DNA from: Bacilli bacterium
Lineage (GTDB): Bacteria > Bacillota_I > Bacilli_A > RF39 > UBA660
Direction: 5' to 3'
NCBI GenBank assembly: GCA_017398945.1
Contig: JAFQES010000027.1
Location: 67,404-131,403 of the forward strand
Length of the DNA stretch: 64,000 nt
The translations under genes were made by a program, and so were the position numbers. A model generated the notes under the pieces. That model had not been told where the DNA came from and did no database searches. It saw only the letters and a list, made by a program, of their open reading frames with translations. Shown piece by piece: positions 24,710-42,881 of this stretch. Every line of letters starts with the position of its first letter. Position 1 is the stretch's first letter.

Positions 24710-25714
24710 ATGATAAAAGTAGCAATTAATGGATTTGGAAGAATAGGAAGACTTGCATTTAGGCAAATGATTACAACAACTGATTTTGATATCGTTGCTA
24801 TAAATGATTTAACTAATGCGGAAGATTTAGCATATTTACTAAAATATGATACAGATCATGGTTCTTTTCATGAAGATGAAATATCATACGATAATGATGA
24901 ATTAATCATTGCTGGAAGTAAAAGAATAAAGGTCTACAGTGAAACTGACCCAGCAAATCTTCCGTGGGGTGAATTAGATATCGATTTGGTTTTAGAGTGT
25001 ACTGGTAAATTTACTGATGCTGAAAAAGCTAAAGCTCATATAACAGCTGGTGCAAAAAAAGTTTTAATTTCTGCTCCTGCGAAAGGAGATTTAAAAACGA
25101 TTGTTTATAGCGTTAATGATTCTACTTTAGATGGAACAGAAAACATTATTTCAGCAGCTAGTTGTACAACTAATTGCTTGGCACCAGTATTAAAAGTAAT
25201 TGATAATAATAATAAGATTATTAGAGGTTATATGACAACGGTTCATGCTTATACTAATGATCAAGCAACCTTAGATATAGCTCATAAAAAAGGAATTTAT
25301 GCCAGAAGAGGTAGAGCTTGCGCCCAAAACATTGTTCCAGCTTCAACGGGGGCTGCCAGTGCAATTGGTGAGGTTATTCCAAGTTTAAAAGGGAAATTGG
25401 ATGGACATGCGTTTAGAGTACCAGTATCTGATGGTTCCGTAATTGATGTAACTTTAGAATTAGAAAGAAATACAACAGTAGATGAAATAAATAATTTATT
25501 TAAAGCTAATGTTAGTGAAGTATTAATGGCGACTAATAATCCTATCGTTTCAAGTGACGTTCTAAATAAAAAATGTGGAGCATTAGTAGACATGTTATCA
25601 ACAAAAATATTAGAAGTGGATGGTAAACAATTAGTTAAAGTAATAGCCTGGTATGATAATGAATTTGGTTACACAGCTCAAATGTTAAGAACGGCTAAAG
25701 CGATGTTTAGATAA
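24710..25714 (+). CDS. gap: Glyceraldehyde-3-phosphate dehydrogenase
   Basis: NGFGRIGR, ASCTTNCLAP (catalytic Cys), WYDNEFGY. Confidence 0.96.
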   Translation: MIKVAINGFGRIGRLAFRQMITTTDFDIVAINDLTNAEDLAYLLKYDTDHGSFHEDEISYDNDELIIAGSKRIKVYSETDPANLPWGELDIDLVLECTGKFTDAEKAKAHITAGAKKVLISAPAKGDLKTIVYSVNDSTLDGTENIISAASCTTNCLAPVLKVIDNNNKIIRGYMTTVHAYTNDQATLDIAHKKGIYARRGRACAQNIVPASTGAASAIGEVIPSLKGKLDGHAFRVPVSDGSVIDVTLELERNTTVDEINNLFKANVSEVLMATNNPIVSSDVLNKKCGALVDMLSTKILEVDGKQLVKVIAWYDNEFGYTAQMLRTAKAMFR

Positions 25715-25777: not shown

Positions 25778-26054
25778 ATGGATAAAATACAATTACAAAA
25801 AGATATAAATGAGGTTATCAACAGTTTTAAACTATTCTTCGGAAATTTTAGAAATGAAAAAAAGAGAAGCTGTGGCTTTAATTGAAAAATTCTATTGTAA
25901 CAATTTAAATTATTTAGGTGAGATGGTTTATGGGTATAAATGTTCATATTCAGATGAAATAGATGCTATTTGTAAAAATATTAGCTTTGGTAGAAAATTA
26001 ACAAGAAAAGTTGATGATGGTACAGCTACGTGCATAGTAAAAGGGTGTGATTAA
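25778..26054 (+). pseudogene. Small Cys-containing leader ORF split by an A7 tract
   Basis: ATG at 25778 with SD aggtga gives only 35 codons (stop at 25885). The remaining 66 codons (MKKREAVALIEKFYCNN...CIVKGCD) are in the +1 frame across A7 at 25857-25863 and have no SD of their own. Confidence 0.35.
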
Positions 26055-26056: not shown

Positions 26057-27007
26057 ATGGGATTGTTTGATGATAAAATTGATGAGCAAGAAGAGAAATT
26101 AATTCAAAAAATTGGCAAAGACTTAAATGCTGCAATGGCTATATTTTGTCACAGATTAGTAGACAAACATACAGCAGAGGACTATAGAGAATATTCACGT
26201 CCTCATCAAAGTACGAATGAATATTTAATGGGAGTATATAGTCAAGTTGATTTATCTAGAAGTAATAATGCCTTGACCGTATTATCAAGTGGAGACCATG
26301 TTTTTAATTTGTTATATCATGATGTTTTAAATATAGATACCTTTGATTGCAACAGGTTAACAGAATATTATGCTTTAGGCTTTAAATTAACAGCCATAAA
26401 AGTTCTTACATTTAAGCAATTTGAAGATTTATTTGCTGACCGTGATGATTATGAGCGTAGTATCGAGAAATATGTAATAAGCAAAATGCCCTTTCATTAT
26501 CAATTATTTTGGCAACATCTTTTAGAAAAACGTCAAGAGATTGGTTTTGAAAGACCTACAGTGTTTGATTTTTGCCGAGATGTTGGATACGATCGTTCTC
26601 ACCATTTTGATTATTCAGAAGCGAGAACAAGATATAACACTTTAAATGCCTATCGAAATCCTGATGGTTTTGAAAAAGTAAAAGAAAATTTAAAAAAAGC
26701 TAATATAACTTTTAAAGTATCTGATATTAGAGAAATACCCCAAAAGTTTGGCGCTTATGATTTCATTGAATTATCTAATATTATTGGTGTTTTAATGAAC
26801 TGGATTGAACCAGAACTCTTAATATCTATAATAAAAAATATATATGATAACAATCTAAATGATAATGGCGAAATGATATTTGCATATAGATATAATAGTC
26901 CTACAATAGAGCGAGATGAAGTTTATAATGGTGTTAACTTTGGACGCAAACGAGCACTAAGCATATGGCCGGATTCTGCTGGCTGCTTATCCAAAAAAGG
27001 AAAATAA
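26057..27007 (+). CDS. Array paralog 1/18, DUF3419/BtaA-like SAM-binding-fold protein (family call tentative)
   Basis: HQSTNEYL; LTVLSSGDHVFNL; IDTFDCNRLTEYYALGFKLTAIKVL; YDFIELSNII; NLNDNGEMIF. Confidence 0.8.
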   Translation: MGLFDDKIDEQEEKLIQKIGKDLNAAMAIFCHRLVDKHTAEDYREYSRPHQSTNEYLMGVYSQVDLSRSNNALTVLSSGDHVFNLLYHDVLNIDTFDCNRLTEYYALGFKLTAIKVLTFKQFEDLFADRDDYERSIEKYVISKMPFHYQLFWQHLLEKRQEIGFERPTVFDFCRDVGYDRSHHFDYSEARTRYNTLNAYRNPDGFEKVKENLKKANITFKVSDIREIPQKFGAYDFIELSNIIGVLMNWIEPELLISIIKNIYDNNLNDNGEMIFAYRYNSPTIERDEVYNGVNFGRKRALSIWPDSAGCLSKKGK

Positions 27008-27009
27008 CA

Positions 27010-27888
27010 ATGATAGAAGTGACGCAAAGAGAAAAAGATATTGAAGAAGTTATAAAAAAATACTGTAGTTCAAGAAGTTTAAAAGCAATAGGTTATGATT
27101 ATAGCGAATATGGTAGGTCTTATCATTTCACCAATGAACATTTAATTGAATTATACAACCAAATAGATTTTACAAATTATCATACCGCATTAAGTGTTTT
27201 ATCTAGTGGCGATCACGTTTTTAACATGATTTATAACGGAATGGAACAAGTTGATACGTTTGATAGTAGTAGGTTAACTGAATACTATGCACTAGGTATT
27301 AAAAAAACTGCTATAGAGCAACTAAATTATCAAGAGTTTTTAACATTATTTTCTAATTCTTTATTACGTAATGATAATGAGTTGGCTTTAGAAAAATATG
27401 TATTATCTTGTACACCAAAAGAATATAAATTTTTTTGGGGATCATTTCTCGAAGCTCAAAGAAATTTGGGAGAAGAAAATCCTACAATATTTACACTTTG
27501 TCGTGATGTCGGGATAATTAGAGGAAATAATTTATATATACAAAGAGAAAAAGATTATAATAAGCTTAAAGAAAACTTAAAGCACGCAGAAATAACATAT
27601 ACGAATGCTGACATTAGAGATTTGCCTGAATTATTTAGTAGTTATGACATTATAGCATTATCAAACATAATAAGCGTTTTAGATAGTTACGTTGAGCCAG
27701 GCATTATCCACAATATGATAAAAAGTATTTATGAGTCTAATTTGAATAAATACGGACAAATGATATATGATTACAAATTTAAAGAAGATGTAATAATTGA
27801 TGATGAATATTTTAATGCAATTAATTATGCTCCAAAGCTTATAAGGAAACTAAATGGTGATGAGGCTGCTATTTTAAGAAAAAGATGA
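27010..27888 (+). CDS. Array paralog 2/18
   Basis: YHFTNEHL; LSVLSSGDHVFNM; VDTFDSSRLTEYYALGIKKTAIEQL; YDIIALSNII. ATG at 27010 is chosen because the N-terminus MIEVTQREKDIE aligns with the other copies. Confidence 0.8.
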   Translation: MIEVTQREKDIEEVIKKYCSSRSLKAIGYDYSEYGRSYHFTNEHLIELYNQIDFTNYHTALSVLSSGDHVFNMIYNGMEQVDTFDSSRLTEYYALGIKKTAIEQLNYQEFLTLFSNSLLRNDNELALEKYVLSCTPKEYKFFWGSFLEAQRNLGEENPTIFTLCRDVGIIRGNNLYIQREKDYNKLKENLKHAEITYTNADIRDLPELFSSYDIIALSNIISVLDSYVEPGIIHNMIKSIYESNLNKYGQMIYDYKFKEDVIIDDEYFNAINYAPKLIRKLNGDEAAILRKR

Positions 27889-27986
27889 TAACCTTAATAG
27901 GTTGTCAAAAATAAAAAGCTTGGGTATAGTGAATTTTTAGATTGCTGTAATTCCCATATAAAGTTAGCTAGACTACATCAGAAAAG

Positions 27987-28010
27987 AGTAACTAACAGGT
28001 TGCTTTTTTT
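27987..28010 (+). terminator. Weak terminator after copy 2 (cassette copy 2)
   Basis: 6-bp stem agtaac/gttgct (one G-U pair), loop taacag, T7 run. Confidence 0.35.
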
Positions 28011-28028
28011 ACTTTATTAAGTTAAAAT
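28000..28028 (+). promoter_or_regulatory. Candidate promoter for copies 3 onward (cassette copy 2)
   Basis: TTGCTT-N17-TAAAAT, 26 nt upstream of the copy 3 ATG. SD aagggg. Confidence 0.35.
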
Positions 28029-28054
28029 AATTAACTTAGTTAAGGGGTATTATT

Positions 28055-28924
28055 ATGATTGAAAGAAATAAAGATTTATTAGCCGCTATAAACTTGTATA
28101 ATGAAATGCAAAAATTTAGCTATAATGGATATAAATTTTATGGCTATGGAGCGTGTTATCAACAAACAAATGAAAAATTGTTGGCATTATTAAGCAAAAT
28201 TGATTTATCTAAAACAAATAAGGCTTTGACAGTAACAGCCAGCGGCGATCATATCTTAAATTTGCTTACAAAAGGTATTACCAACATTGATACTTTTGAT
28301 AGTAATCGTTTAACTGAATATTATGCATTAGGATTTAAATTGGTTGCGGCAAAGTGTTTGGATAAGGAACAATTTTTTAAACTATTCACAGAAACTCCCC
28401 ATTCCAAAGAAAATATTGCATTGCAAAAATTTGTAATTTCTTGTGCCCCTGAACAATATCGGTGGTTTTGGCAAAATTATTTTATTTTTTTAGATAATGA
28501 AAAAAATGAGCATCAGGGTATTTTTGAAATATGTCGTAAGAAAGTAGAAAATCATATAGATAATAATATATATCTACAATCTTCTCAAAATTATCTTGCA
28601 ATGCAACAAGCTTTAAATAAATCTAATATAACTTTCAATCATTTGAACGTAACACAGATTCCAGAAAATTTAGGTACTTATGATTTTATTTATTTATCAA
28701 ATATTTTTGAATATCGTCAAAAAATATTTGGTACAAACGATTCGGTAACAGATGTTGCTGAATTGGTAGAGTCAATATATAAAAACAATTTAAATATGAA
28801 TGGTGAATTATTTTATTTATATGTAATATTTAGAAATTATCAAGAAATTATGAATAGTATTAAAATTGCGGAAACGAAAATATATAGAGATAAAAATTTA
28901 AGAGTTTTAAGTTTAAAAAAATAG
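28055..28924 (+). CDS. Array paralog 3/18
   Basis: YQQTNEKL; LTVTASGDHILNL; IDTFDSNRLTEYYALGFKLVAAKCL; YDFIYLSNIF; NLNMNGELFY. Confidence 0.8.
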   Translation: MIERNKDLLAAINLYNEMQKFSYNGYKFYGYGACYQQTNEKLLALLSKIDLSKTNKALTVTASGDHILNLLTKGITNIDTFDSNRLTEYYALGFKLVAAKCLDKEQFFKLFTETPHSKENIALQKFVISCAPEQYRWFWQNYFIFLDNEKNEHQGIFEICRKKVENHIDNNIYLQSSQNYLAMQQALNKSNITFNHLNVTQIPENLGTYDFIYLSNIFEYRQKIFGTNDSVTDVAELVESIYKNNLNMNGELFYLYVIFRNYQEIMNSIKIAETKIYRDKNLRVLSLKK

Positions 28925-28937
28925 AGGTGGTGAAACA

Positions 28938-29816
28938 ATGCGACGAATTTCTGGTTGGGAAAAAGATTTAGCTGGCGTAATAGCTAGAGGTAAAGATATA
29001 GCAATTGATTATCAAAAATATTCTAAGTGTTATCCTTTTACTAACGAAAAATTGAAAGACCTAACATCTTTTATTGATAAAGCTAATGTTAATAAGGCGC
29101 TTTGTGTTTTATCAAGTGGCGATCATGCTTTTAATCTAATTTATCATGGGATAAATAATATAGATACTTTTGATTGTAACCGAATTACCGAGTATTACGC
29201 TTTAGGATTTAAAAGGTATGCAATAGAATGCCTTAGCTATCAACAATTCTGCGATTTCTTTTTTAATGATTCTTCTGAAAACCAATCAATCGAAAAGTAT
29301 ATAATTAGTTGTCTTCCAGAAAAATATAAAAATTTCTGGCAAAGTTATTTTGAGTATCTATTAGAAAATTACAATCCTTTATTATCAAGTAGAAGAAGTG
29401 CAAATATTTTTCGGATATTATGTTATATTGAAGAAAGTATGACTGAAAATAATAACTATCTTTCGAGTGAAGAAGACTACAAAAAGTTACAAAGAAATCT
29501 TTTAAATGCTCAAATTAATTTTAAAGAACTTGATGTAAATGCCCTAAGTCATCAAAAAGAGAAATATGATTTAATAATGTTATCGAATATATTACAAGCT
29601 ATGAAAAAACCATTAATTGGAAAAACAATTGATATTGCTGAAAAAATATTTAAACAAAATTTAAAAGAAAATGGGGAAATAATTTATTTGTATGAATTTT
29701 TTGATAAAGAATTATTAGGAAAAAAAGAAATGGTGTTGGAAAGAACACCTGGTTCACAAAATATAAAATATATTTTAGATGGTAGTTATGCTACTAGTAA
29801 GAAAAAAATAATTTAA
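28938..29816 (+). CDS. Array paralog 4/18
   Basis: YPFTNEKL; LCVLSSGDHAFNL; IDTFDCNRITEYYALGFKRYAIECL; YDLIMLSNIL; NLKENGEIIY. Confidence 0.8.
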   Translation: MRRISGWEKDLAGVIARGKDIAIDYQKYSKCYPFTNEKLKDLTSFIDKANVNKALCVLSSGDHAFNLIYHGINNIDTFDCNRITEYYALGFKRYAIECLSYQQFCDFFFNDSSENQSIEKYIISCLPEKYKNFWQSYFEYLLENYNPLLSSRRSANIFRILCYIEESMTENNNYLSSEEDYKKLQRNLLNAQINFKELDVNALSHQKEKYDLIMLSNILQAMKKPLIGKTIDIAEKIFKQNLKENGEIIYLYEFFDKELLGKKEMVLERTPGSQNIKYILDGSYATSKKKII

Positions 29817-29824
29817 GTGGTGCA

Positions 29825-30703
29825 ATGATAGCTAATATTAATAATGAACAACGTCAAAAAGACTTAGAACAAATACCAAAATTTATAAATGATAGTGATT
29901 TTGAATATAAATTTCAAGAATATTCAGCTATTTACTATCTTACTAATGAAAAGTTATCAAATTTATATAATGAAATTAATTTTACAAAGTACAAGACAGC
30001 TTTAACTGTGTTATCAAGTGGCGATCAAGCTTTTAATTTAGTATTAGAAGGATTAGAAAAAATAGACACTTTTGATTGTAATCGCTTAGCAGAGTATTAT
30101 GCTTTAGGATTTAAAAAAACCGCCATTCAATGTTTAGATTATAAAGATTTTACCAATTTATTTTATCTTCGCCAGAAAAAGCTATATGACTTAGAAAGTG
30201 AAGTAATAAAACATATGCCAGAAGAATATAAACTTTTTTGGAAAGAGTATCGAGAAGAATATAGACAATATTATCCTTATCCTAGTGTATTGGGGTTGGC
30301 TAAAGAACATAATTTTCCTAATGGAAATAATATTTATTTTAGTAAAGAGAGTTATAAATATTTGCAAAAAAGATAAAATGAGGTATTAATTACGTTTACT
30401 TATGCAGAAGTTAAACAATTACCTGAGGTGTTTGGTCAATATGATTTTATATATTTATCTAATATTTTATCATATGATCACTGGGTATTTAATAGTGATG
30501 ATAGAGAATATTTAGCAGAGCAATATGCTAAGTTAGTATCAGATATATACACAAAAAATTTAAATCAAAATGGACTATTAATATATAATTATGGATTTAA
30601 TGGTTTACTAGATAAATATTGTAGTAAAGAAATTGTAGAAAGAAAAGTCACTTATGATTTAGGTAAGTTAAATAGAGCACACGGGTTAAGAAAAATCAAA
30701 TAG
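29825..30703 (+). pseudogene. Array paralog 5/18, interrupted by one in-frame TAA
   Basis: Track ORFs 29825..30376 and 30428..30703 are in the same frame. TAA at 30374-30376 replaces the conserved Leu of LQKR-L. The motifs are intact on both sides (LTVLSSGDQAFNL; YDFIYLSNIL). Confidence 0.75.
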
Positions 30704-30717
30704 AAAGGGAAATATCA

Positions 30718-31614
30718 ATGTTAAGTTTAGGAGAACAAAGAAAAATAGACATTCAAAAAATTTTAGAAATATATGGAAAAGCAGATATTTCTTTAACTGG
30801 TAACTTTTTTGATGAATACTCACGTTTCTATGATTTTACTAATGAAAAACTATTTGGTTTATTTGAATTGTTAAAATTACAGGAAAAAGAATTCGCTTTA
30901 ACAGTTTTATCGAGTGGAGATCATGTTTTTAATTTAATATTACAAGGAATTAATAAAATTATGACCTTTGATTGTAATCGCCTAACAGAATATTATGCTC
31001 TAGGTTTTAAAAAAACTGCTATTGAAATACTAAATTATGAACAGTTTATTGAATTATTTTGTCCGTATGGATATTCAGCGGTATCATCTAAATTAATTGA
31101 ATTAGAAAAAGAAGTTATCAAAAATATGCCACTTATTTATCGCAAATTTTGGGAGAACTTTTTAAATATGCGTAGAGAATATGAATATAATCCGAGTATT
31201 TTTCATTTGACTTATTCAACAAGTAATTTTGCAAAAGCCATCAGTAATAATAAATATCTTTTAAATGCAGAAATGTATAACGCTTTAAAAAGGAAAATAT
31301 CAACTGCTAAAATTGAATTTGTTGCTGCTAATATAACTGATGTCCCCCAATTATTCGGAAGATATGATTATATCGATTTTTCAAATGTATTATATTATTA
31401 TCAAAGGATATTTCCTGAAGAAAGTGCAATGAAAGCTATTAATTTTGTTAAATCGGTTTATGAAAACAACCTCAATGAAGGAGGGCTGTTTAAATATTAT
31501 TATGACTTTGATGGATTAAGACATTTACCAAAGGTTGGTGGACAGATAGAAAAAGAATATGTTTTAGGTTCAGATACAACTTCAATTTTAAAAAGAACAA
31601 TAAATATGAATTAA
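30718..31614 (+). CDS. Array paralog 6/18
   Basis: YDFTNEKL; LTVLSSGDHVFNL; IMTFDCNRLTEYYALGFKKTAIEIL; YDYIDFSNVL; NLNEGGLFKY. Confidence 0.8.
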   Translation: MLSLGEQRKIDIQKILEIYGKADISLTGNFFDEYSRFYDFTNEKLFGLFELLKLQEKEFALTVLSSGDHVFNLILQGINKIMTFDCNRLTEYYALGFKKTAIEILNYEQFIELFCPYGYSAVSSKLIELEKEVIKNMPLIYRKFWENFLNMRREYEYNPSIFHLTYSTSNFAKAISNNKYLLNAEMYNALKRKISTAKIEFVAANITDVPQLFGRYDYIDFSNVLYYYQRIFPEESAMKAINFVKSVYENNLNEGGLFKYYYDFDGLRHLPKVGGQIEKEYVLGSDTTSILKRTINMN

Positions 31615-31622
31615 AAAATAAC

Positions 31623-31651
31623 TTGTAGATTTTAATAACATGCTTTATTAT
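31623..31651 (+). promoter_or_regulatory. Candidate internal promoter upstream of copy 7
   Basis: TTGTAG-N17-TATTAT in the 109-nt spacer. SD agggggag precedes the ATG at 31724. Confidence 0.35.
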
Positions 31652-31723: not shown

Positions 31724-32647
31724 ATGGTAATATCACAACAGCGTAAATTTGACTTGGAAAATATGATTAAAATATATTTAGAAGGTTATCAAGATGGATA
31801 TTTTGGAGTTAATGATGATTTTATAGAATATGCTAGTTTCTATCATTTGACTAATGAGCCTGTTAATAAAATATTTAGTGAAATCGGTTTGAATGAGGTT
31901 CAAAAAGCTTTAAGCGTTCTAGCTAGCGGGGATCAAGTATTTCATATGATTAGTGGCGGGGTTCAAAATATTGATACCTTTGATATAAATCGCTTAACAG
32001 AATATTATGCCCTAGGATTTAAGAAAAGAGCAATAGAATGTTTAAATTATTATGAATTTATGAAGTTATTTGAGTATTATAAAGACTGGGATCTTGAACG
32101 ACATTTTGGCGAAAATAAAGACATAGAAAAGTATGTAATTGAAAATATGGAAGAAGAATACAAATGTTTTTGGAATGAATTCCTTTATGCCGTAAAAGAA
32201 AAAGGATTTGAAGCAAGTATATTTCATTTATCTTGTGAAGCTGATCTTATTGATAGGCAAAATACAAAAAACAATTTATATATGAAAGATGAAAGTGAGT
32301 ATATTAAACTACAAAGAAGACTGAAGGAAGTTAATATATCATATAAGTATTGCTCAATAATGGATGTTCCAACTACATTTGCTAAATATGATTTAATATA
32401 TCTTTCTAATATTATGGATTATTATCGTTCTTTTTATGGAAATAATAATAGACCAATGGATGATGCTAGAAATTTAATTAAAGCCATTTACACTCAAAAT
32501 TTAAATCCAAATGGCGAAATAATATTAACGGAAATGCAAAGAAAATTTTCCCCCAATGAATTTTTAAAAGAAATGATTAATCATCCGATCATTAATAATT
32601 GTCTATTTACAGCTTATGGAATAAAAAAGAAGCGAAAATTAAAGTAA
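31724..32647 (+). CDS. Array paralog 7/18
   Basis: MVISQQRKFDL; YHLTNEPV; LSVLASGDQVFHM; IDTFDINRLTEYYALGFKKRAIECL; YDLIYLSNIM. ATG at 31724 has a strong SD; the track's longer start has none. Confidence 0.8.
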   Translation: MVISQQRKFDLENMIKIYLEGYQDGYFGVNDDFIEYASFYHLTNEPVNKIFSEIGLNEVQKALSVLASGDQVFHMISGGVQNIDTFDINRLTEYYALGFKKRAIECLNYYEFMKLFEYYKDWDLERHFGENKDIEKYVIENMEEEYKCFWNEFLYAVKEKGFEASIFHLSCEADLIDRQNTKNNLYMKDESEYIKLQRRLKEVNISYKYCSIMDVPTTFAKYDLIYLSNIMDYYRSFYGNNNRPMDDARNLIKAIYTQNLNPNGEIILTEMQRKFSPNEFLKEMINHPIINNCLFTAYGIKKKRKLK

Positions 32648-32667: not shown

Positions 32668-33561
32668 ATGGCAATATCAGAACAAAGAAAACAAGATTTA
32701 TATAAAACTATTGAGTTATATTTAAATATATATCAAGAAGGAAGACTTGAATTAAAAAGCGAATTTTCGAAATATGCCGGATATTATTATATAACTAATG
32801 AGCCTATATGCGAAATATTTAATATAAGAACAAAATATGAAAACAAAAAAATTCTAAGTGTATTAGCTGGCGGAGATCATATATTTGAAATGATATTTAA
32901 AGGAGCTAGTAATGTAGATACATTTGATATTAATGCTTTATTAGAATATTACACAATTGGATTTAAAAAAAGAGCAATAGAGTGTTTAGCTTATCAAGAA
33001 TTTCTTGATTTATTTGATTTTTCATATGATGGACTAGAAAATAAGTATTATAATATAAAAACTGAAATAGAAGACTATGTTGTTAAAAATATGGATGAAG
33101 AATATAATTGGTTTTGGCAAGAAATAAAACGCATTCTAAAAGATTACGGATATCAAGCAAGCGTATTTCACTTTGCTTTAAATATTAAACAAAAAGAATT
33201 TAATAAACCAAGTTTCTTGAAAAATGAAGATAACTATATAATTCTTCAAAATAAATTAAAATCTACAATTATAAATTTTCAACAAGCAAATATAATAGAC
33301 CTACCAATAAATTTTTCTAAATATGATTTAATATATTTATCAAATATCTTAGATTATAGGGAACAAGAATTTGCTAAAATACTATTAACTGATATATATA
33401 ATAATAACTTACATAGAAATGGCCAAATAATATTTACAGATTTATGTAGCTATTTTAATGAAGAAATATATGAATGTGTTCCAGGGGCAGAAAAAATAAA
33501 AAAATGCTTTGATAGCGCGGGGCTACTTAGTTATTCATTAAAGAAGAGGAAGATTAAATGA
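32668..33561 (+). CDS. Array paralog 8/18
   Basis: MAISEQRKQDL; LSVLAGGDHIFEM; VDTFDINALLEYYTIGFKKRAIECL; YDLIYLSNIL; NLHRNGQIIF. Confidence 0.8.
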   Translation: MAISEQRKQDLYKTIELYLNIYQEGRLELKSEFSKYAGYYYITNEPICEIFNIRTKYENKKILSVLAGGDHIFEMIFKGASNVDTFDINALLEYYTIGFKKRAIECLAYQEFLDLFDFSYDGLENKYYNIKTEIEDYVVKNMDEEYNWFWQEIKRILKDYGYQASVFHFALNIKQKEFNKPSFLKNEDNYIILQNKLKSTIINFQQANIIDLPINFSKYDLIYLSNILDYREQEFAKILLTDIYNNNLHRNGQIIFTDLCSYFNEEIYECVPGAEKIKKCFDSAGLLSYSLKKRKIK

Positions 33562-34493
33562 TTAGAACTGAACAACGTGAAATAGATTTAGAAAATGCAA
33601 TTAATTTGTACGTAAATAAATTTGAAAAAAGTAGTCCATCTAATTTTGATGAATATTCGCCTTATTATGTATTTACAAATGAACCATTACAACAACTGAT
33701 CGATTTAGTTGACCTATCTACATATAAAAAATGTTTATCAGTTTTAGCAGGAGGAGACATCGCATTTTCCTTAATTAATAAGGGTTTTAAGCAAGTGGAC
33801 ACGTTTGATATAAATAGACTAACAGAGTATTTTGCTCTAGGATTTAAAAAAAGAGCAATAGAACTTTTGTCATATGAGCAATTTTTAGAACTATTTAATT
33901 ACGACTTTCATGCCCTTTTTAATAACCAACTTGGCACAAACCAAGCATTAGAAAATTATGTAATATCCAACATGGATAAAGAATACAAAAATTTTTGGAT
34001 GGGATATAAATATGGATTAAAAGAAAAAGGATATAATCCCAGTGTATTTCATATGGGAGTAAATTATATTTTAAAAGATATTAAATACCGTAAACAATTA
34101 TCTTATCTAAACTGCGCAGAAGACTATAAAACATTTCAAAAAAAATTAATTAATTCAACAATAAATTTTAAACCATTAGATATAAAAGATATTCCACAAA
34201 AACTTAATAGTTATGATTTTATACATCTTTCTAATATTTTAGATTATTCCTATTTGCTCTATCCTGATAGTAGAAAAGCTGTTAATGAAGGAATTAAACT
34301 ATTAACTGAAATTTATAATAAAAATTTAACAAGTGAAGGCTTGATAATTATTACAGCCATATTACCACGTTTTATTAGTTCATTAGTATGGAATCGTAAT
34401 TATGCAGATCTACTAAAAAAATATCCAATAGAGAATTTTTACGAAATAGAAACTCATGGAATTAAGAAAAAAAGGAACATAGTTTTAAAGTAA
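33558..34493 (+). CDS. Array paralog 9/18
   Basis: ATGA overlap with copy 8. LSVLAGGDIAFSL; VDTFDINRLTEYFALGFKKRAIELL; YDFIHLSNIL. Confidence 0.8.
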   Translation: MIRTEQREIDLENAINLYVNKFEKSSPSNFDEYSPYYVFTNEPLQQLIDLVDLSTYKKCLSVLAGGDIAFSLINKGFKQVDTFDINRLTEYFALGFKKRAIELLSYEQFLELFNYDFHALFNNQLGTNQALENYVISNMDKEYKNFWMGYKYGLKEKGYNPSVFHMGVNYILKDIKYRKQLSYLNCAEDYKTFQKKLINSTINFKPLDIKDIPQKLNSYDFIHLSNILDYSYLLYPDSRKAVNEGIKLLTEIYNKNLTSEGLIIITAILPRFISSLVWNRNYADLLKKYPIENFYEIETHGIKKKRNIVLK

Positions 34494-34499
34494 AATGTC

Positions 34500-34556: not shown

Positions 34557-35471
34557 ATGGTCATATCAACGCAAAGAGAAAATGACTTGCAAAACACTAT
34601 AGATTTATATTTAAGTATTTATAAAGATAAGAAAAAAGGTCGTTTAGATGATTTTGTTGAGTATGCTGGTTTTTATCATATTACAAATGAAAAAGCTAGT
34701 GAAATAATTGAAAAAACAACAGTTACCGATAATATGAAAGCTTTATGTGTTTTAGCTGGAGGAGATCAAGCTTTTAATTTTATTAATGCTGGTGTAAAAA
34801 ATATAGACACTTTTGATATAAACAGATTAACAGAGTATTATGCGCTAGGATTTAAAAAAAGAGCAGTAGAATGTTTAAGTTATGCTGAGTTTATTAAACT
34901 TTTTAGTTATAATCAGGGATTATATATTAGATCACATAATCATTTGCAACCAGAAATAGAAAAATATGTTATTGAAAATATGGAAGAAGAATATAAATGG
35001 TTTTGGCAAGAATTGTTCTATGCATTAATTCAAGAAGAATTCGATCCTAGTATCTTTCATTTATCAATCTTTACCGGTCCTAAAGATATAACTAAAAACA
35101 ATTATGCGAAAGACGAAGAAACATATAAAAACTTTCAAAAGTTATTAAGAGAAGCTAAGATAACATTCAATCAATCTTCCATAACTGAGCTTCCAGAAAA
35201 ATTTGGTATATATGATTTAGTTTATTTATCAAATATTCTGGATTATCCAAGAGATTTTTATGGTGACAAAGAAAACCCTTTATATTCTGCATTAGAGTTA
35301 TTAAATAGAATTTATGAACAGAATTTAAATGTTTCGGGCGAAATAATAATGACCTACTTAACTGGTTCATTTATCCCTTCACTTTATAAAAATCAGTACT
35401 ATAAAAATAATTTTGAAGAAATTATTCTTAATACCGAAAGAGAACATGCTTACAGATTATTAAAAAAATAA
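34557..35471 (+). CDS. Array paralog 10/18
   Basis: MVISTQRENDL; LCVLAGGDQAFNF; IDTFDINRLTEYYALGFKKRAVECL; YVIENMEEEYKWFWQEL; YDLVYLSNIL. Confidence 0.8.
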   Translation: MVISTQRENDLQNTIDLYLSIYKDKKKGRLDDFVEYAGFYHITNEKASEIIEKTTVTDNMKALCVLAGGDQAFNFINAGVKNIDTFDINRLTEYYALGFKKRAVECLSYAEFIKLFSYNQGLYIRSHNHLQPEIEKYVIENMEEEYKWFWQELFYALIQEEFDPSIFHLSIFTGPKDITKNNYAKDEETYKNFQKLLREAKITFNQSSITELPEKFGIYDLVYLSNILDYPRDFYGDKENPLYSALELLNRIYEQNLNVSGEIIMTYLTGSFIPSLYKNQYYKNNFEEIILNTEREHAYRLLKK

Positions 35472-35483: not shown

Positions 35484-36407
35484 ATGATAACAGAACAACG
35501 TAAAAAAATCATAATCAATGATTTAAATGAAGCAATAAAATTGTTTCAAAGAATAAAAAATGATGACGGGCCTGGAAGTGCCGAATATTGTGATTATCAT
35601 CCGTTTTATGAAAATACAAATGAACATTTAGCTCATTTACTAAGACCTATTACAATTCCTTCAGATAGTAAGATATTAACTGTATTAGCAAGTGGAGATC
35701 AACCTTTTAATTTTATTAACAATGGAGCTACTTATGTTGATACATTTGATATAAATAAACTAACAGAGTATTATGCTTTAGGATTTAAAAGGACAGCGTT
35801 ACTTTCGTTATCTTATGAACAATATTTAAGTTTATTTTTTTCCAATGATAACGAGGAAGCAGAGCAACTAGAAAATTATGTAATTGAAAGTATGCCAGAG
35901 GACTACAAATGTTTTTGGAAAGAATATAAATATGTTATAAAAAACTTAGGGTATAAAGCAAGTGCTTTTGATTTGTCGATAGATGATATAAGAGATGATT
36001 ATTATATTAAAAATAATTATTTATTAAATGAAAAAGTTTACAAAGAATTTCAACAAAAACTACTCAATGCTAAAATAAATTTTACTCATGCTAATGTAAC
36101 AGATCTATCAACAAAATTTTCTCAATATAATTTAGTATATTTATCTAATGTTATGGACTATTATAAAACGGTATTATATACTGACGTATCACCACAAGAA
36201 GCGTTATTAAAAGCAGTTGAGTTAACAAAAGAAATATATGCCAAAAATGTATTAAATCCCGGAGAATTAATGTTTAGTTTCTTTGGTACAGGGTATGCCA
36301 ACGAAGTTTTTATTGACCCAACTGTTGAAGGTGAAAAACGAATGTACTATGCGCCATATACTTACCCAAGTCATAGAGGGTTGAAAAAGGGGAAGGGCTT
36401 ATGGTAA
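35484..36407 (+). CDS. Array paralog 11/18
   Basis: LTVLASGDQPFNF; VDTFDINKLTEYYALGFKRTALLSL; YNLVYLSNVM. Confidence 0.8.
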   Translation: MITEQRKKIIINDLNEAIKLFQRIKNDDGPGSAEYCDYHPFYENTNEHLAHLLRPITIPSDSKILTVLASGDQPFNFINNGATYVDTFDINKLTEYYALGFKRTALLSLSYEQYLSLFFSNDNEEAEQLENYVIESMPEDYKCFWKEYKYVIKNLGYKASAFDLSIDDIRDDYYIKNNYLLNEKVYKEFQQKLLNAKINFTHANVTDLSTKFSQYNLVYLSNVMDYYKTVLYTDVSPQEALLKAVELTKEIYAKNVLNPGELMFSFFGTGYANEVFIDPTVEGEKRMYYAPYTYPSHRGLKKGKGLW

Positions 36408-37318
36408 AAACAATATCTGAACAAAGAAGAAAAGATTTAGACGAGGCTATAGAGCTTTATTTATCTGCTTATCAAAAGAAAGATTTTGTAAACGATGATT
36501 TTGTTGAATATGCCGGTTATTATCGAATTACTAATGAACCATTTAGTAAATTTTTAGCCAAAGCCAATTTTTCTGATACAACAAAAACGCTCAGTGTCTT
36601 ATCTAGTGGAGATCAAGTGTTTGAAATGGTACGAAAAGGAATTAAAAAAATAGATACCTTTGATATAAATAGAATGACTGAGTACTTTGCATTAGGTTTT
36701 AAAAAACGTGCTATAGAATGCTTGACATATGAACAATTTTTAAGCCTTAACAAATACGATAGGATCGTTACTAAGCATAATAATGAAAATCTTGAAATAG
36801 AAAAATATGTAATTGAAAATATGGAAGAAGAATATAAGTGGTTTTGGCAAGAATTAATAGCTAGCTTAAAAGGTGAAGGTTTTAATGTTAGTGTATTTCA
36901 TTTTGTTATAGATTATCTCTATTTAACAAAATTCCATTATAGTAGAAATCCTTATATGGCAGATAAAGAAAAATATAAAGAATTACAACAAAAATTGTTA
37001 AAGGCCAAGATAACTTTTCAGCAAGCTGATATAAAAGAACTTCCTAAAAAATTTCAACAATATGACTTGATATATTTATCTAATATCTTAGAATATCATG
37101 AAGATATTTTTGAAAAATCTGGTTTCCCACCTGAAGAAGCAATTAAGTTATTAAAAAAAATTTATAATAAAATGTTAAATAATTACGGTGAAATCATTTT
37201 AACTGATTTAATGAATTGGTTTTATCCAGAATTTTGCGGAGAAAAGTTATTTAAAGAAAATCATGAGTTAATAATCGATGGATCAGATAGAGGATATATA
37301 TTAAAAAAGAAAAAATAA
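36401..37318 (+). CDS. Array paralog 12/18
   Basis: 7-nt overlap with copy 11. LSVLSSGDQVFEM; IDTFDINRMTEYFALGFKKRAIECL; YVIENMEEEYKWFWQEL; YDLIYLSNIL. Confidence 0.8.
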   Translation: MVKTISEQRRKDLDEAIELYLSAYQKKDFVNDDFVEYAGYYRITNEPFSKFLAKANFSDTTKTLSVLSSGDQVFEMVRKGIKKIDTFDINRMTEYFALGFKKRAIECLTYEQFLSLNKYDRIVTKHNNENLEIEKYVIENMEEEYKWFWQELIASLKGEGFNVSVFHFVIDYLYLTKFHYSRNPYMADKEKYKELQQKLLKAKITFQQADIKELPKKFQQYDLIYLSNILEYHEDIFEKSGFPPEEAIKLLKKIYNKMLNNYGEIILTDLMNWFYPEFCGEKLFKENHELIIDGSDRGYILKKKK

Positions 37319-37330: not shown

Positions 37331-38199
37331 ATGAATAAACAGCAAAAAAAGATATTGAAATGACTAAAGACTTCTATCGTAAATTAATTCTTAATTGTAA
37401 TATAGGAAATAGCTTTGAAACATATTCTAAAGTTTATTCCTTCACTAATGAAAATCTTGCTGATCTTTATCCTTTGATACATTTTGAAAAATATAATAGC
37501 GCTCTTACAGTTTTATCAAGTGGAGACCATGCCTTTAATCTAATTTATATGGGAATTGATAAAGTAGATACATTTGATACAAATCGCTTAACTGAATACT
37601 ATGCATTAGGTTTAAAAAAGACAGCTATCCAATGCTTAAATTATAATGAATTTATGAAATTATTTTCTGGAAAAATAGAACGAAAACAAATTGACCTGCT
37701 TAATTATGTGATTCAAAATATGGAACCAGAATATCGTAATTATTTTGAAACATTAATTGCATACTTTAAAAAATATTCTTTTGACTATGTAATTCATTTA
37801 TTTAGGAGCGATACTGATATAAGTCAAAAAGATATAAAAAACATCTATCTTCGTTCCGGTGTTAATTATCACAAAAAGCAAAAAAGATTAGCTAATACTA
37901 CTATTAGTTTTAAACATTGTGATGTGTTAAATATCCCAAAAGAATTTGGAAAGTATGATTTAGTAGAGCTATCTAATATTTTAGGAGTAAGTGTGAACAG
38001 AAACTGGCTACAGAAAAAAAGAGTTTATGATTTGCTTCGTCAAATTTATGATAATAACTTAAAACATGGAGAACTTCTGTTTGATTATTCTTGGGGAAAT
38101 GATTTTAGGACAGTAGGGGAATGTAGTGATATTTTTGATAATGTTAGTTATGCAAACAAAAAAGAATATGCTCACATGAACGATCTTATACGAAGTTAA
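37331..38199 (+). CDS. Array paralog 13/18, 5' end out of frame across an A7 tract
   Basis: SD aggagg serves the ATG at 37331, which stops after 10 codons. The body (ATG at 37360, no SD) is in the -1 frame. A7 at 37344-37350; an A8 would give MNKQQKKDIEMTKDF... The body motifs are intact (LTVLSSGDHAFNL; VDTFDTNRLTEYYALGLKKTAIQCL; YDLVELSNIL). Confidence 0.7.
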
Positions 38200-38272: not shown

Positions 38273-39172
38273 ATGGGAAACTTAGAAGAACAAAGATTAG
38301 AAGATTTAAGGCAAATTAGAGATAGAATTAAGAATTGTAATTTATCACGTGATTTTGAAGAATATGCTGTGTTTTATTATTTTTCAAACGAACAAATAAA
38401 CAGGAAATATGCTCAAATAGATTTTACAAATTATCATACCGCCTTAACTGTGTTATCAAGCGGAGATCATGCGTTTAATATAATATACAAAGGCATTGAC
38501 CTTGTGGATACTTTTGATATAAATCGTATGACGGAATATTATGCCCTAGGATTTAAAAAGCGTGCCATAGAATGTTTAAGTTTTGAACAGTTTTACTCTT
38601 TATATGATTTTGGAAATATTCAAAGATTACTTGAATTAGAAGATGAAGTTATTAAGTGCATGGATAGAGAATACAAGAAATTTTGGGAATCTTTTAAATA
38701 TGAATTAAATTGTTTAGGAGAAAGAATTCCAACTGTTATACGTTGGACTAAGGAAATTGCCAAACCTCACGGGAATTACTATAATAGTTATTTAGAAAAT
38801 GAAGAATCATATAAACGTTTACAAAAAAGATTAGAAACTGCTAAAATTACTTTTACCCAAGGAAATATAACAGAAATACCAACTAGATTTGGAACATATG
38901 ATTTTATTGAATTATCAAACATATTAACTTATCAACGTCATATATTTCCCCATAGTTTGGCAAAATATAATACAACAAAATTAGTAAGAAAAATTTATGA
39001 GCATAATTTAAAAGGTTTAGGGACAATGCTTTACCAAACCGGAGGAACAATAGTAGGTAATAACCCATTAAGTTGTTTTGCGCCTAAACTTCTAAAAAGA
39101 GCAAAAAATAACTTTGATAAAAACAATACTGAATCATGGGTTTATGGACTTCAAAAAGGGGACAGGAAATGA
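38273..39172 (+). CDS. Array paralog 14/18
   Basis: YYFSNEQI; LTVLSSGDHAFNI; VDTFDINRMTEYYALGFKKRAIECL; YDFIELSNIL. Confidence 0.8.
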   Translation: MGNLEEQRLEDLRQIRDRIKNCNLSRDFEEYAVFYYFSNEQINRKYAQIDFTNYHTALTVLSSGDHAFNIIYKGIDLVDTFDINRMTEYYALGFKKRAIECLSFEQFYSLYDFGNIQRLLELEDEVIKCMDREYKKFWESFKYELNCLGERIPTVIRWTKEIAKPHGNYYNSYLENEESYKRLQKRLETAKITFTQGNITEIPTRFGTYDFIELSNILTYQRHIFPHSLAKYNTTKLVRKIYEHNLKGLGTMLYQTGGTIVGNNPLSCFAPKLLKRAKNNFDKNNTESWVYGLQKGDRK

Positions 39173-40043
39173 ATTTGGTAGAACAAAGATTAGAAGATTT
39201 AAAACAATTAAAAAAATTATTAAAACGAATAGTCTGCCATATGACTTTAAAGAGTATGCTGCCTTTTATTAATTTTCTAATGAACGAATAAACCAAAAAT
39301 ATTCTGAAATTGATTTTACAAATTACCAAACAGCATTGTGCGTTTTATCAAGAGGGGATCATGCTTTTAATGCAATATGTCACGGTATAGATAAAGTAGA
39401 TACTTTTGATGTGAATCGCTTAACAGAGTATTATGCAATAGGCTTTAAAAAAAGAGCAATAGAGTGTTTGAATTTTGAACAATTTTGTTCTTTGTATATT
39501 CTTCATGAGAAAAAATTAATGGATTTAGAAGATGAAGTAACTAAAAACATGGATTAAGTATATAAAAAGTTTTGGGAAACTTATATTTACGAAACGAAAT
39601 GTTTAGGTGAGTCTTTTCTGAGTGTATTATGGTGGAGGAAAGAGTATAAATATCCTGAAGGTAACATCTACAATGCTTATTTAGAAAATGAAGAATCATA
39701 TAAATATTTACAAAAACGATTAGAGGTTGCAAAAACAACTTTCACTTAAGCGAATATAACTGAATTGCCATCAAAATTTAAAGACTATGATTTTATTGAA
39801 TTATCAAATATATTATCTTATGGAGAATATATTTTTGGGAATTATATTAAATATCGATCAAGTAATTTAATAAGCGAGATTTATGACTGTAATTTAAAAA
39901 ACAAAGGAACAATGATATATCAAACAAGAGGATGTGATCCCTTAAATCCTTTGCTTACTCCAATGCGTCTTAAAAGGGCAAGGAAAACCTTTGCCGAAAG
40001 TGATGGCTGGTGTGTGTATATGGTCTTCAGAAAGGTGGGATAA
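39169..40043 (+). pseudogene. Array paralog 15/18, decayed duplicate of copy 14
   Basis: ATGA overlap with copy 14. One frameshift near 39215-39235 plus three in-frame TAA codons (FY*FSNE, NMD*VYKKFW, TFT*ANITE). Still aligns with copy 14 along its full length. Confidence 0.8.
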
Positions 40044-40044: not shown

Positions 40045-40983
40045 ATGACAATATCAGATCAAAGAAAAATAGATTTACAAAAGGCTATAGAAGTTTATAT
40101 GCGTAAGTTAAAAAGAAACAATCCGAACATAAATGGTGGGGAGTATGGCTTGTATTATCGATTTACTAATGAACCCTTTGTTAACTTTGTTAACAGGGTA
40201 AATGTTTCTGCAAATATTGATGTGCTTACTGTGCTTGCTAGCGGAGACCAAGCTTTTAATTTTATTCAATCCGGAGCTAATCATATTGATACATTTGACA
40301 TTAATCGCTTAACGGAATATTTTGCCCTTGGTTTTAAAAAGACTGCTATTCAAGTATTAAATTATGAGAATTTTTTAAAATTATTTAATTATAATAGCTT
40401 AAAACCACAAAATACTCCAGACCTAGAATTAGAAAAAAGTATAATAGAATCATGTCCAGAAGAATACAAATGGTTTTGGCAAGAATTCACGCATATTTTA
40501 AAAGATAATAACTTGAATCCCAGTGTATTTGAAATATCCGAGGGATTTCATTCCAATATAGTGAAAAAACATCGTTGTAATAATTATATGAATAATGAAG
40601 AAAATTATAAATTGTTACAAAAGAGATTATTAGAAACGACAATAACATTTCAGCCTTTAGACTTAGCCGATGTATCTAAAGCAATCAAGCAAAAATATGA
40701 CTATGTATTTATATCCAATATTTTAGATGCTTTTGCTACCCATACTACTAATAATATTCCTAATTCTTTAAAAGTAGCGTTAAAAATGTTTTTAGATATT
40801 TATCGCCATAATGTAAAAAGAAATGGAGAATTAACATTTTCAACATTTGATTTTGGAGGACTTGGTGATGAGTTTATCGATATGTATAATTTGTTAGATA
40901 ATAAAAATGGTGAAAAAGTTATGTATCCGGGTGAAGTACCTCTAATATTTGGTTTGCGAAAAAGTAAAAAAAAAATAAAATAA
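40045..40983 (+). CDS. Array paralog 16/18
   Basis: MTISDQRKIDL after the SD aaaggtggg; LTVLASGDQAFNF; IDTFDINRLTEYFALGFKKTAIQVL; YDYVFISNIL. Confidence 0.8.
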   Translation: MTISDQRKIDLQKAIEVYMRKLKRNNPNINGGEYGLYYRFTNEPFVNFVNRVNVSANIDVLTVLASGDQAFNFIQSGANHIDTFDINRLTEYFALGFKKTAIQVLNYENFLKLFNYNSLKPQNTPDLELEKSIIESCPEEYKWFWQEFTHILKDNNLNPSVFEISEGFHSNIVKKHRCNNYMNNEENYKLLQKRLLETTITFQPLDLADVSKAIKQKYDYVFISNILDAFATHTTNNIPNSLKVALKMFLDIYRHNVKRNGELTFSTFDFGGLGDEFIDMYNLLDNKNGEKVMYPGEVPLIFGLRKSKKKIK

Positions 40984-41029: not shown

Positions 41030-41947
41030 ATGATGAAAATATCAGAACAAAGAAGAATAGATTTAGATAAAGCTATTAACACCTACCTTGAAAGATTTGA
41101 AAAATCAAATATTGATATTCAAAGAAAGTTTTTAGAGTACTCTGGATATTATAAATTTACTAACGAGTATTTAGGTAGATTAATATTAAAAAAGAATTAT
41201 TCCGCCGAATTTTTAAGCGAGAAAAGACTTTTAACTGTATTATCAAGTGGCGATCAAGCGTTTAACTTTATTAATCAAGGAGTAATGACGGTTGATACTT
41301 TTGATATAAATCGTTTAACTGAATATTTTGCCCTAGGATTTAAAAAAGTTGCATTAGAAACTTTAACATATGATCAATTTGAAAATTTATTTAAAAACTT
41401 TCTTGTTGATAGCGCTCGCGATTTGGAAAAGGGGGTAATTGAAAACGCGCCAGAAGAATACAAGTGGTTTTGGACTGAGTTTAAATATGCCTTAAAACAA
41501 AATGGGTTTCCAAATCCAAGTGTCTTTGACTTAGCTAAAAGAATGGATTATTACAGAGTAAAATCGTCAAATGTTAATCCCTATTTGTGCAGTGTAGATG
41601 ATTACAAAAATTTTCAACAGCAACTATCCAAAGCAAAAATAACTTTTCAACAATGTGATATTAAAGAGTTGCCTACAAAACTTGCTAAGTACGATTTAGT
41701 GTTGTTATCTAATATTGTTGAATATTATGGAAAAACAAACAAACCAATATCTGAACAATTATTAGAAGCTCAAACGGTTACACAAGATATATTTAATAAC
41801 AATTTAAACCTTGGCGGAGAAATGGTGCTTTTCGCATTTTATCAATCATTTATTGGAAAAGTGTGTCGCAACTTAAATATTAATTGCGCTAAGGATATCT
41901 TTTATTTGCTTGAAGATAAGGTATATAGTCTAAAAAGGAGCTTGTAA
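41030..41947 (+). CDS. Array paralog 17/18
   Basis: MMKISEQRRIDL; LTVLSSGDQAFNF; VDTFDINRLTEYFALGFKKVALETL; YDLVLLSNIV. Confidence 0.8.
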   Translation: MMKISEQRRIDLDKAINTYLERFEKSNIDIQRKFLEYSGYYKFTNEYLGRLILKKNYSAEFLSEKRLLTVLSSGDQAFNFINQGVMTVDTFDINRLTEYFALGFKKVALETLTYDQFENLFKNFLVDSARDLEKGVIENAPEEYKWFWTEFKYALKQNGFPNPSVFDLAKRMDYYRVKSSNVNPYLCSVDDYKNFQQQLSKAKITFQQCDIKELPTKLAKYDLVLLSNIVEYYGKTNKPISEQLLEAQTVTQDIFNNNLNLGGEMVLFAFYQSFIGKVCRNLNINCAKDIFYLLEDKVYSLKRSL

Positions 41948-42864: not shown

Positions 42865-42881
42865 TATAATAGGTGATAATA

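Follow-up and report, generated by a model that had tools for sequence, protein, structure and literature searches.

A tandem array of short, divergent DUF3419 proteins, predicted SAM-dependent transferases, within the gap-pgk operon of a Bacilli bacterium

A 64,000-nucleotide stretch of contig JAFQES010000027.1 of a Bacilli bacterium (hereafter the window, in which all positions are counted) carries, between the glycolytic genes gap and pgk, a head-to-tail series of open reading frames (ORFs) of about 300 codons (26057-42842), opened by copy 1, an intact ORF of 316 amino acids (aa) at 26057-27007. According to sequence comparisons, it is essentially right to regard the array proteins as a short (about 300 residues), divergent branch of the DUF3419 superfamily. 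From their sequences and structural models, the intact copies are probably active S-adenosylmethionine (SAM)-dependent transferases with diversified acceptors (probability of roughly 0.7); if so, methyl transfer is somewhat more likely than transfer of a 3-amino-3-carboxypropyl (ACP) group. The family assignment itself is not new: in the NCBI pipeline, the proteins already carry the name 'DUF3419 family protein' or 'class I SAM-dependent methyltransferase'. The novelty is descriptive and consists of a distinct short subfamily, placed in uncultured Bacilli-type metagenome-assembled genomes (MAGs) by all genome loci recovered here, and an ancient expansion of 18-24 genes inside the gap-pgk operon. 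A tblastn search of the window with all copies recovered 18 copies, the number of variants given in an earlier, sequence-only reading of this DNA, but just 15 are intact and three are disrupted.

The sequence-only reading had tentatively placed the array in DUF3419, the family of the betaine-lipid enzyme BtaA, from the order of its motifs, and had proposed a comparison of each copy with PF11899. This comparison supports the placement: PF11899 (DUF3419) is the best Pfam family for 15 of 15 intact copies (hmmscan against Pfam-A; E-values of 2.4e-12 to 1.9e-5, 24.5-47.2 bits). Twelve of these (28.7-47.2 bits) pass the curated gathering cut-off of 28.2 bits, and copies 1 (28.1), 8 (26.6) and 17 (24.5) lie just under it. 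The match starts at profile positions 5-30 and mostly ends at about 86-129 (145 in copy 6, 164 in copy 9) of 385; the same partial coverage is found in nine distant relatives, and a tenth (P0087) has no PF11899 match. Furthermore, the family alignment (A2, 77 sequences) was compared by hhalign with an alignment of 40 canonical DUF3419 N-termini (A3), for which a synthetic consensus probe was used as bait only, the sequences retained being real proteins named BtaA or DUF3419 and carrying PF11899. The two alignments match with a probability of 96.6% and an E-value of 6e-10 over 108 columns. In this match, (i) Y..TNE is paired with Y.q.WED, (ii) ALtVLSSGDH with vl.IaSaG.N, (iii) IDTFD.N with I.AVDLN, (iv) ALGfK..aI (ALGFK) with LLELK and LK.AA, (v) sY..F with L.y..f and (vi) FW with yW. 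The Y, the E, S-x-G-[CD], D-x-N, the K, the A, Y..F and the W of the canonical N-terminal signature are thus kept, and the W and D of WED and the N of the loop are replaced. Three of the four motif pairings proposed in the sequence-only reading are recovered at this E-value. The reading had also called the SSGD[HQ] loop unusual, which does not hold: this is the form that methyltransferase motif I takes in the family, and it is ordinary for DUF3419, whose canonical members have S-[AG]-G-[CD]-N there, in many cases as TSAGDN. The C-terminal halves of the copies give sub-threshold matches to Methyltransf_11, Methyltransf_25 and Methyltransf_31, to CheR and to the OvoA C-terminal domain, located on 'ITF..D....P..F..YDxIxLSN' (strands b3-b4), and no Pfam methyltransferase family reaches its cut-off in the array copies.

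The fold was modelled with AlphaFold2, using the family alignment, for copy 1 (predicted local distance difference test, pLDDT, 90.7; predicted template modelling score, pTM, 0.90) and for copy 10, which has an AGGDQ loop (pLDDT 91.2; pTM 0.91). In both models (residue numbers here and below are those of copy 1), an N-terminal helix precedes b1 (71-75) and the SSGD loop, b2 (92-97) ends with D97, and an all-helical insertion of about 115 residues (101-214) lies between b2 and b3. The later strands are b3 (216-221), b4 (234-238, followed by the LSN loop), 267-278, 297-303 and 306-312, and both models show the seven-strand order b1-aA-b2-...-b3-b4-b5-b6-b7 of the class I fold. The significant Foldseek matches of both models in the PDB are all class I SAM methyltransferases (probability 1.0, E-values of 6e-6 to 1e-3), and include RedM, DpnM/Dam/T4 Dam, OvoM/OvoA, NNMT/PNMT, AviRa, TehB, UbiG and plant O-methyltransferases. 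The Rossmann-fold, SAM-type architecture expected in the sequence-only reading is therefore supported at the level of the predicted fold, and profile and structure matches are both present. The idea that a basic C-terminal tail serves as a nucleic-acid or membrane anchor was rejected as weak, since the tail closes the last strand and the proteins are acidic overall.

The top PDB match of the copy 10 model is 6ulo, an uncharacterised Leptospira interrogans protein (E-value 6e-6, template modelling (TM) score 0.39-0.43), which may be the nearest solved structure to the short subfamily; the canonical DUF3419 N-terminal profile does not detect 6ulo by sequence. A PDB sequence search with the family profile returned only OvoM (E-value 0.54, on the b3-b4 motif), and one with the canonical DUF3419 N-terminal profile returned nothing significant. 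Sequence searches thus detect no solved structure either for the short subfamily or for canonical DUF3419.

An ordered set of motifs with constant spacing, which the sequence-only reading had described for every copy, is confirmed by a regular-expression scan in 15 of 15 intact copies: Y..[TS]NE; V[LT][SA][SG]GD[HQI]; [DM]TFD; EY[YF][AT][LI]G[FIL]K; FW; and Y[DN].[IV].[LFI]SN[IV]. The leading Y of the first motif is found in all other copies but not in copy 1 itself (H-Q-S-T-N-E), and DTFD is found in every intact copy except copy 6 (MTFD). The disrupted copies still show the same motifs, although decayed: in copy 15 the first motif contains a stop codon and the loop is SRGDH, and copy 18 reads EYYVMDIK and VSNI. 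The six-frame translation of the remaining 46.8 kb of the window contains none of the specific patterns. The loop reads, over the 18 copies, SSGDH (seven), SSGDQ (three), ASGDQ (three), ASGDH, AGGDH, AGGDQ and AGGDI (one each) and SRGDH (one, in the pseudogene). In A2, G79, D80, F96, D97, Y234 and S240 are invariant and N54, E55, S78, D94, N99, T102, E103, Y104, G108, K110, W152, D235 and N241 are at least 90% conserved. D97, invariant in the 77 sequences, ends the predicted b2 and aligns with the invariant D of canonical AVDLN. Column entropy over 47 array paralogues is minimal at the b1-loop, b2, the first lid helix and b4, and maximal at 31-40, 61-70, 171-180 and the last ~35 residues (281-310). 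By analogy with class I enzymes and in the models, the conserved residues, on the b1-loop, the end of b2, the first lid helix and the b4-loop, would form the cofactor site and its rim.

The anatomy of class I methyltransferases (motif I, ribose acid, adenine contact, acceptor loop) is the basis of the residue roles proposed here. Each intact copy would be a soluble class I (Rossmann-fold) SAM-using enzyme of about 300 residues, in which the S-S-G-D loop after b1 (the motif I of the family) and D97 could hold SAM, D97, at the end of b2 (DTFD), being the putative acidic residue that binds the ribose hydroxyls. A lid of about 115 residues (101-214), headed by the near-invariant TEYYALGFK helix, would be inserted between b2 and b3. 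Strands b3 (ITF..D/N) and b4 (YDxIxLSN) could complete the cofactor site, D/N223 after b3 possibly touching the adenine, and the invariant S240-N241 loop, at the class I position of acceptor-binding or catalytic residues, may form the acceptor pocket together with the lid. The paralogues would most likely move the same SAM-derived group onto different acceptors, because the core is kept and variation falls mainly in 31-40, 61-70, lid residues 171-180 and the last ~35 residues.

The window has a G+C content of about 28% and almost all of its genes are on the + strand. The array is bounded by gap (24710-25714) and pgk (42873-44018), the latter being followed by tpiA, a Spo0A-like regulator gene and gpmI. 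The paralogues are 23-50% identical as proteins (median 35%), and Tandem Repeats Finder detects no tandem DNA repeats in the array, because the copies are too diverged. Ribosome-binding sites (GGGG- or GGAGG-like purine runs) precede most copies, and the spacers between copies are short or overlapping. Promoter- and terminator-like sites are no commoner in the array than in shuffled sequence, so internal transcription units cannot be argued from them; from this layout, long polycistronic transcription of the array is plausible. An Rfam scan of the whole window gave no match. The glycolytic operon (24710-47188) has two interruptions: the 17-kb array, which separates gap from pgk, and the Spo0A-like response regulator gene (44851-45615), which separates tpiA from gpmI. 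The same twice-interrupted gene order is found in a sister genome, MAG RGIG3081 (goat rectum). The features of the array are the following:

gap, 24710..25714, + strand: glyceraldehyde-3-phosphate dehydrogenase, the identical gene of locus L001 having the Pfam domains Gp_dh_N and Gp_dh_C; upstream boundary of the array; orthologue in RGIG3081 95% identical.
C-terminal remnant of a nineteenth copy, 25872..26042, + strand: 57 residues inside a 66-aa ORF; tblastn match to copy 1 residues 256-313, E-value 1e-5; an intact full copy (RG_9124_9999) occupies the same position in RGIG3081.
Copy 1, 26057..27007, + strand: intact, 316 aa; loop VLSSGDH; first motif HQSTNE; PF11899 28.1 bits.
Copy 2, 27010..27888, + strand: intact, 292 aa; PF11899 28.7 bits.
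Copy 3, 28055..28924, + strand: intact, 289 aa; loop VTASGDH; top PF11899 score, 47.2 bits, E-value 2.4e-12.
Copy 4, 28938..29816, + strand: intact, 292 aa; PF11899 34.3 bits.
Copy 5, 29825..30700, + strand: disrupted by one in-frame nonsense codon, codon 184 (30374-30376), also present in independent metagenome contigs; N-terminal part 38.9 bits; RGIG3081 orthologue intact.
Copy 6, 30718..31614, + strand: intact, 298 aa; PF11899 36.1 bits.
Copy 7, 31724..32647, + strand: intact, 307 aa; loop VLASGDQ; PF11899 32.3 bits.
Copy 8, 32668..33561, + strand: intact, 297 aa; loop VLAGGDH; PF11899 26.6 bits.
Copy 9, 33558..34493, + strand: intact, 311 aa; loop VLAGGDI; PF11899 34.3 bits.
Copy 10, 34557..35471, + strand: intact, 304 aa; loop VLAGGDQ; PF11899 28.9 bits; second structure model.
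Copy 11, 35484..36407, + strand: intact, 307 aa; PF11899 38.2 bits.
Copy 12, 36401..37318, + strand: intact, 305 aa; PF11899 31.8 bits; weak Methyltransf_31/25/11 matches at residues 183-258.
Copy 13, 37360..38199, + strand: intact, 279 aa; PF11899 40.5 bits.
Copy 14, 38273..39172, + strand: intact, 299 aa; PF11899 31.1 bits.
Copy 15, 39186..40004, + strand: decayed pseudogene with three in-frame stops; loop SRGDH; tblastn 58% identity to copy 14, E-value 3e-97; likely orthologue is the intact RGIG3081 relative RG_27749_28666.
Copy 16, 40045..40983, + strand: intact, 312 aa; PF11899 34.0 bits.
Copy 17, 41030..41947, + strand: intact, 305 aa; PF11899 24.5 bits.
Copy 18, 41947..42842, + strand: frameshift near 42190, with an N-terminal part (41947-42189) and a C-terminal ORF (42195-42842); RGIG3081 orthologue intact, 95% identity over the C-terminal part.
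pgk, 42873..44018, + strand: phosphoglycerate kinase, from its translation; downstream boundary of the array; a 93% identical orthologue directly follows the RGIG3081 array.

An identical copy 1, in the same layout, is present on several ruminant-gut metagenome contigs. RGIG3081 carries 24 intact copies, likewise between gap and pgk, and 16 of the window copies find their best RGIG3081 match in collinear order, with 54-96% identity; copy 17 is the only one without a clear orthologue there (best match 44%). The ratios of nonsynonymous to synonymous substitutions (dN/dS, Nei-Gojobori) of the 16 orthologue pairs are 0.12-0.38, compared with 0.03 for gap and 0.06 for pgk. A third genome (JAZRRD010000092) has eight copies, whose order matches that of some of the RGIG3081 copies. 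In a neighbour-joining tree, the array copies form one clade made of deep paralogue lineages, each with orthologues from two or three genomes; the expansion is therefore older than these species, and it has been retained. The array is thus old and kept under purifying selection, although the window genome has occasionally lost a copy, as its three pseudogenes and one remnant show.

The flanks of the array of JAZRRD010000092.1 (locus L013, 4578-11846) differ, with an AMP-dependent ligase gene and a Mur ligase gene upstream and a TMEM164-like gene downstream; judging from this gene order, either the array or its surroundings appear to have moved. The synonymous divergence (dS) between the window and RGIG3081 (loci L012 and L014) is uneven, at 0.05-0.16 for copies 7, 9, 12 and 18 and 0.97-1.47 for copies 2, 3, 4 and 14, and it ranges in the flanks from 0.29 (tpiA) to 1.37 (a PRK-family gene), which suggests a recombination mosaic between lineages.

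Other uncultured gut Bacilli, from rabbit, sheep, chicken and human and with labels such as 'Mycoplasma sp. CAG:776', Candidatus Caccenecus and Erysipelotrichaceae MAGs, encode more distant relatives in one to four copies, 300-340 aa long and about 25-30% identical. Among 1.84 billion representative proteins, a profile search retrieved 3273 clusters with an E-value of at most 1e-3 and 653 with one of at most 1e-30, the best 150 being 195-339 aa long. Every family locus found when species-representative genomes were scanned comes from an uncultured MAG of Bacilli type. A search from the longest distant relative (P0096) toward canonical DUF3419 found only further members of the short subfamily. 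A tblastn search with copy 3 gave no match among PLSDB plasmids (E-value 10) or GenBank phages (E-value 1), so within these two collections the array does not occur as cargo of mobile elements. PADLOC and PHROGs likewise gave no meaningful matches for the family, and a mobile-element, phage or defence role has no support.

Relatives of the array genes are found in at least four other housekeeping contexts (FAM, family gene): (i) sigma factor-gltX-x-FAM-NUDIX-RNHCP-metA or GT2, in nine loci (L017, L019, L024, L028, L029, L032, L035, L016 and L015) ordered as gltX, a small ORF, the family gene or genes, NUDIX, RNHCP and then metA or GT2; (ii) mreC-mreD-FAM...spoIVFA-spoIVFB-FAM-rplU, in five loci; (iii) gyrA-FAM-ylbD; and (iv) rsmE-x-mtaB-FAM, with a single-copy relative. 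No partner gene is common to the five genomic contexts seen, and the neighbour analysis amounts to housekeeping synteny alone. This lack of a conserved partner is consistent with a single-component enzyme. No btaB-type methyltransferase partner lies beside the array or in any of 21 low-copy loci. In five of these 21, metA (homoserine O-acyltransferase, Pfam HTS) is found three genes downstream. This proximity is a weak lead, the genomes concerned being related to one another; the link to homoserine could be a hint at ACP chemistry or plain synteny.

Several observations weigh against the reading of the intact copies as active SAM-dependent transferases with diversified acceptors. The significant DUF3419 match is confined to the N-terminal third, and the C-terminal two thirds of the PF11899 profile are matched by no copy. 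The fourth motif pairing of the sequence-only reading, which concerns the C-terminal YDxIxLSN motif, is collinear yet not significant: in local mode, hhalign of the C-terminal region against 64 full-length canonical BtaA sequences, from genes taken from metagenome loci, gave a probability of 0.09 and an E-value of 0.59, with 'N.YL..Y..L...ITF...YDxIxLSNIxxY...G.I' collinear with 'PPYL..NF..vr..Rv.v...sLDRYVLLDAQDWMDD...RPGARViF'. An equivalence of these C-terminal motifs with canonical BtaA is plausible from their order. A single canonical C-terminal half searched against the family profile gave nothing significant. The motif I loop ([SA]-[SG]-G-D-[HQI]) lacks the classical GxGxG and has one invariant glycine and no leading acid. 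The Foldseek TM-scores are just 0.35-0.43, as expected, because of the lid, if the Rossmann core alone superposes, and no close structural homologue sets the chemistry. The residue roles are deduced from the class I topology and not from a docked cofactor. Lastly, the dN/dS values of the copies are three to five times those of gap or pgk and three of the 18 copies are decaying, so individual copies are dispensable.

Canonical BtaA is the closest characterised point of comparison. BtaA, the sole characterised DUF3419 protein, transfers a 3-amino-3-carboxypropyl group (PMC6642084, PMC10491745), and if the copies were true BtaA orthologues, they would transfer it from SAM to diacylglycerol and so start the synthesis of the betaine lipid diacylglyceryltrimethylhomoserine (DGTS). 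This is extremely improbable, although the N-terminal motifs align with BtaA-type sequences: about 110 N-terminal residues are homologous (Pfam E-values to 2e-12; hhalign 96.6%), with Y....E before b1, the S-x-G-[CD] loop, D-x-N at the end of b2, the K and A of the lid helix, L.y..F and ..W in common, and the overall plan of a Rossmann core with a helical lid after b2 is shared. The copies reach 24-47 bits over the N-terminal third, whereas for R. sphaeroides BtaA the PF11899 match has a P of 2e-106 (PMC6642084), and one canonical btaA reaches 148 bits with its first half and 152 bits with its second. The latter gene belongs to a canonical locus (L038, 2245-4956) with the order btaA then btaB and with an OmpR/PhoB-type response regulator gene before btaA, which is split by a frameshift into two ORFs covering PF11899 positions 7-117 and 186-383. 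By contrast, no btaB accompanies the array or any relative, WED is replaced by TNE, the loop ends with H or Q and not with N, and the copies have about 300 aa, compared with about 400-430 aa for canonical BtaA, being some 100 residues shorter than canonical proteins of 360-480 aa. The short subfamily has one to 24 copies in gut anaerobic Bacilli, in contrast to one phosphate-regulated gene, and one lipid does not need 15-24 diverged paralogues. The copies are therefore not considered BtaA orthologues, given the one-third profile match, the shorter length, the lack of btaB and the multi-copy state. It is possible, if on the unlikely side, that they are ACP transferases with BtaA-like chemistry and other acceptors (small molecules, lipids or proteins), which would make the array a radiation of a rare SAM chemistry. 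Their DUF3419 descent, with the S-x-G-[CD] loop and the E of Y..WED (E55) kept, agrees with this, and so does, as a weak lead, the metA gene three genes downstream in five of the 21 low-copy loci; moreover, ACP transferases are rare, methyltransferase-like enzymes that cannot be predicted or recognised by sequence (PMC11869996). However, the W and D of the canonical WED are lost (TNE plus a variable residue), the top structural matches are ordinary N-, O- and C-methyltransferases, and the present data do not discriminate methyl from ACP transfer. That the whole array is a radiation of 15-24 ACP transferases forming homoserine ethers or amines by BtaA-like chemistry, each with its own acceptor, is distinctly unlikely.

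The structural matches also include nucleic-acid enzymes, with Dam, DpnM, T4 Dam and the rRNA methyltransferase AviRa among the top Foldseek matches. The copies share with Dam/DpnM DNA adenine methyltransferases a large insertion after b2, between the cofactor and catalytic halves of the Rossmann fold, and one single-copy relative follows rsmE-x-mtaB. Nevertheless, a role as DNA or RNA methyltransferases, either Dam-like with a target-recognition insertion or modifying rRNA or tRNA, is quite improbable: LSN stands in the place of DPPY/NPPY after b4, and the absence of (D/N)PPY together with a mildly acidic median pI of about 6 argues against nucleic-acid substrates. There is no sequence similarity to Dam/DpnM, no restriction partner or restriction-modification context and no PADLOC or PHROG match; the TM-scores are about 0.4, and a small genome that devotes 15-24 paralogues to nucleic-acid marks would be without precedent. 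Immunity genes typically form tandem arrays of diverged paralogues, and the array could instead consist of non-catalytic proteins, either SAM-sensing or SAM-binding or acting as an immunity-type array against secreted toxins. An EssC-like gene (9283-13908) lies 12 kb upstream, the variable regions are peripheral and some copies decay, all of which would suit such a role. It is nonetheless improbable, since the invariant residues are those of the cofactor site and not of a surface patch, housekeeping genes separate essC from the array, the relatives elsewhere are single genes in housekeeping operons, and the orthologues are stably inherited and collinear, with dN/dS below 0.4.

The preferred reading, of active SAM-dependent transferases with different acceptors, can be set beside two further known systems. 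The class I small-molecule methyltransferases (OvoM/OvoA C-terminal domain, NNMT/PNMT, RedM, TehB, UbiG) provide the best Foldseek matches, and the b3-b4 region of the copies fits the Methyltransf_11/25/31 and OvoA-C profiles weakly; unlike them, the copies lack GxGxG and have a 115-residue lid in place of the short helix B, with TM-scores of 0.35-0.43. The MttB-superfamily methyltransferase paralogues of acetogens are a lineage-specific expansion of one enzyme family in gut anaerobes. Like these, the array combines many anciently diverged paralogues, a conserved core, variable substrate-facing parts and purifying selection, but here all the paralogues follow one another head to tail, without interruption, within the gap-pgk operon. 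If the copies are active on different acceptors, they would be a compact natural panel for the determinants of acceptor choice and of methyl versus ACP transfer in this fold, and could reveal new modifications made by abundant uncultured ruminant gut bacteria. If they are a radiation of ACP transferases, no other organism would come near this small-genome gut Bacillus in its number of enzymes with this rare SAM chemistry, and the array would be a source of new modified lipids, metabolites or proteins in the ruminant gut.

Other genes of the window were also annotated. The EssC-like gene (9283-13908, + strand) encodes a type VII secretion ATPase of 1541 aa with an N-terminal FHA domain and FtsK/SpoIIIE ATPase domains. 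The ORFs 61-693 and 693-1712 have no Pfam match. A 598-aa protein (47940-49736, + strand) consists of HEAT repeats fused to a class I methyltransferase domain (Methyltransf_25/31) and is unrelated to the array. A 173-aa ORF (6071-6592, + strand) contains 'NWWCVLFPPLC' and presumably resembles the sporulation protein SpoIIR. Together with the Spo0A-like regulator of the window and the GerQ, YlbD and CotZ genes of related loci, this SpoIIR-like ORF indicates a spore-forming lineage.

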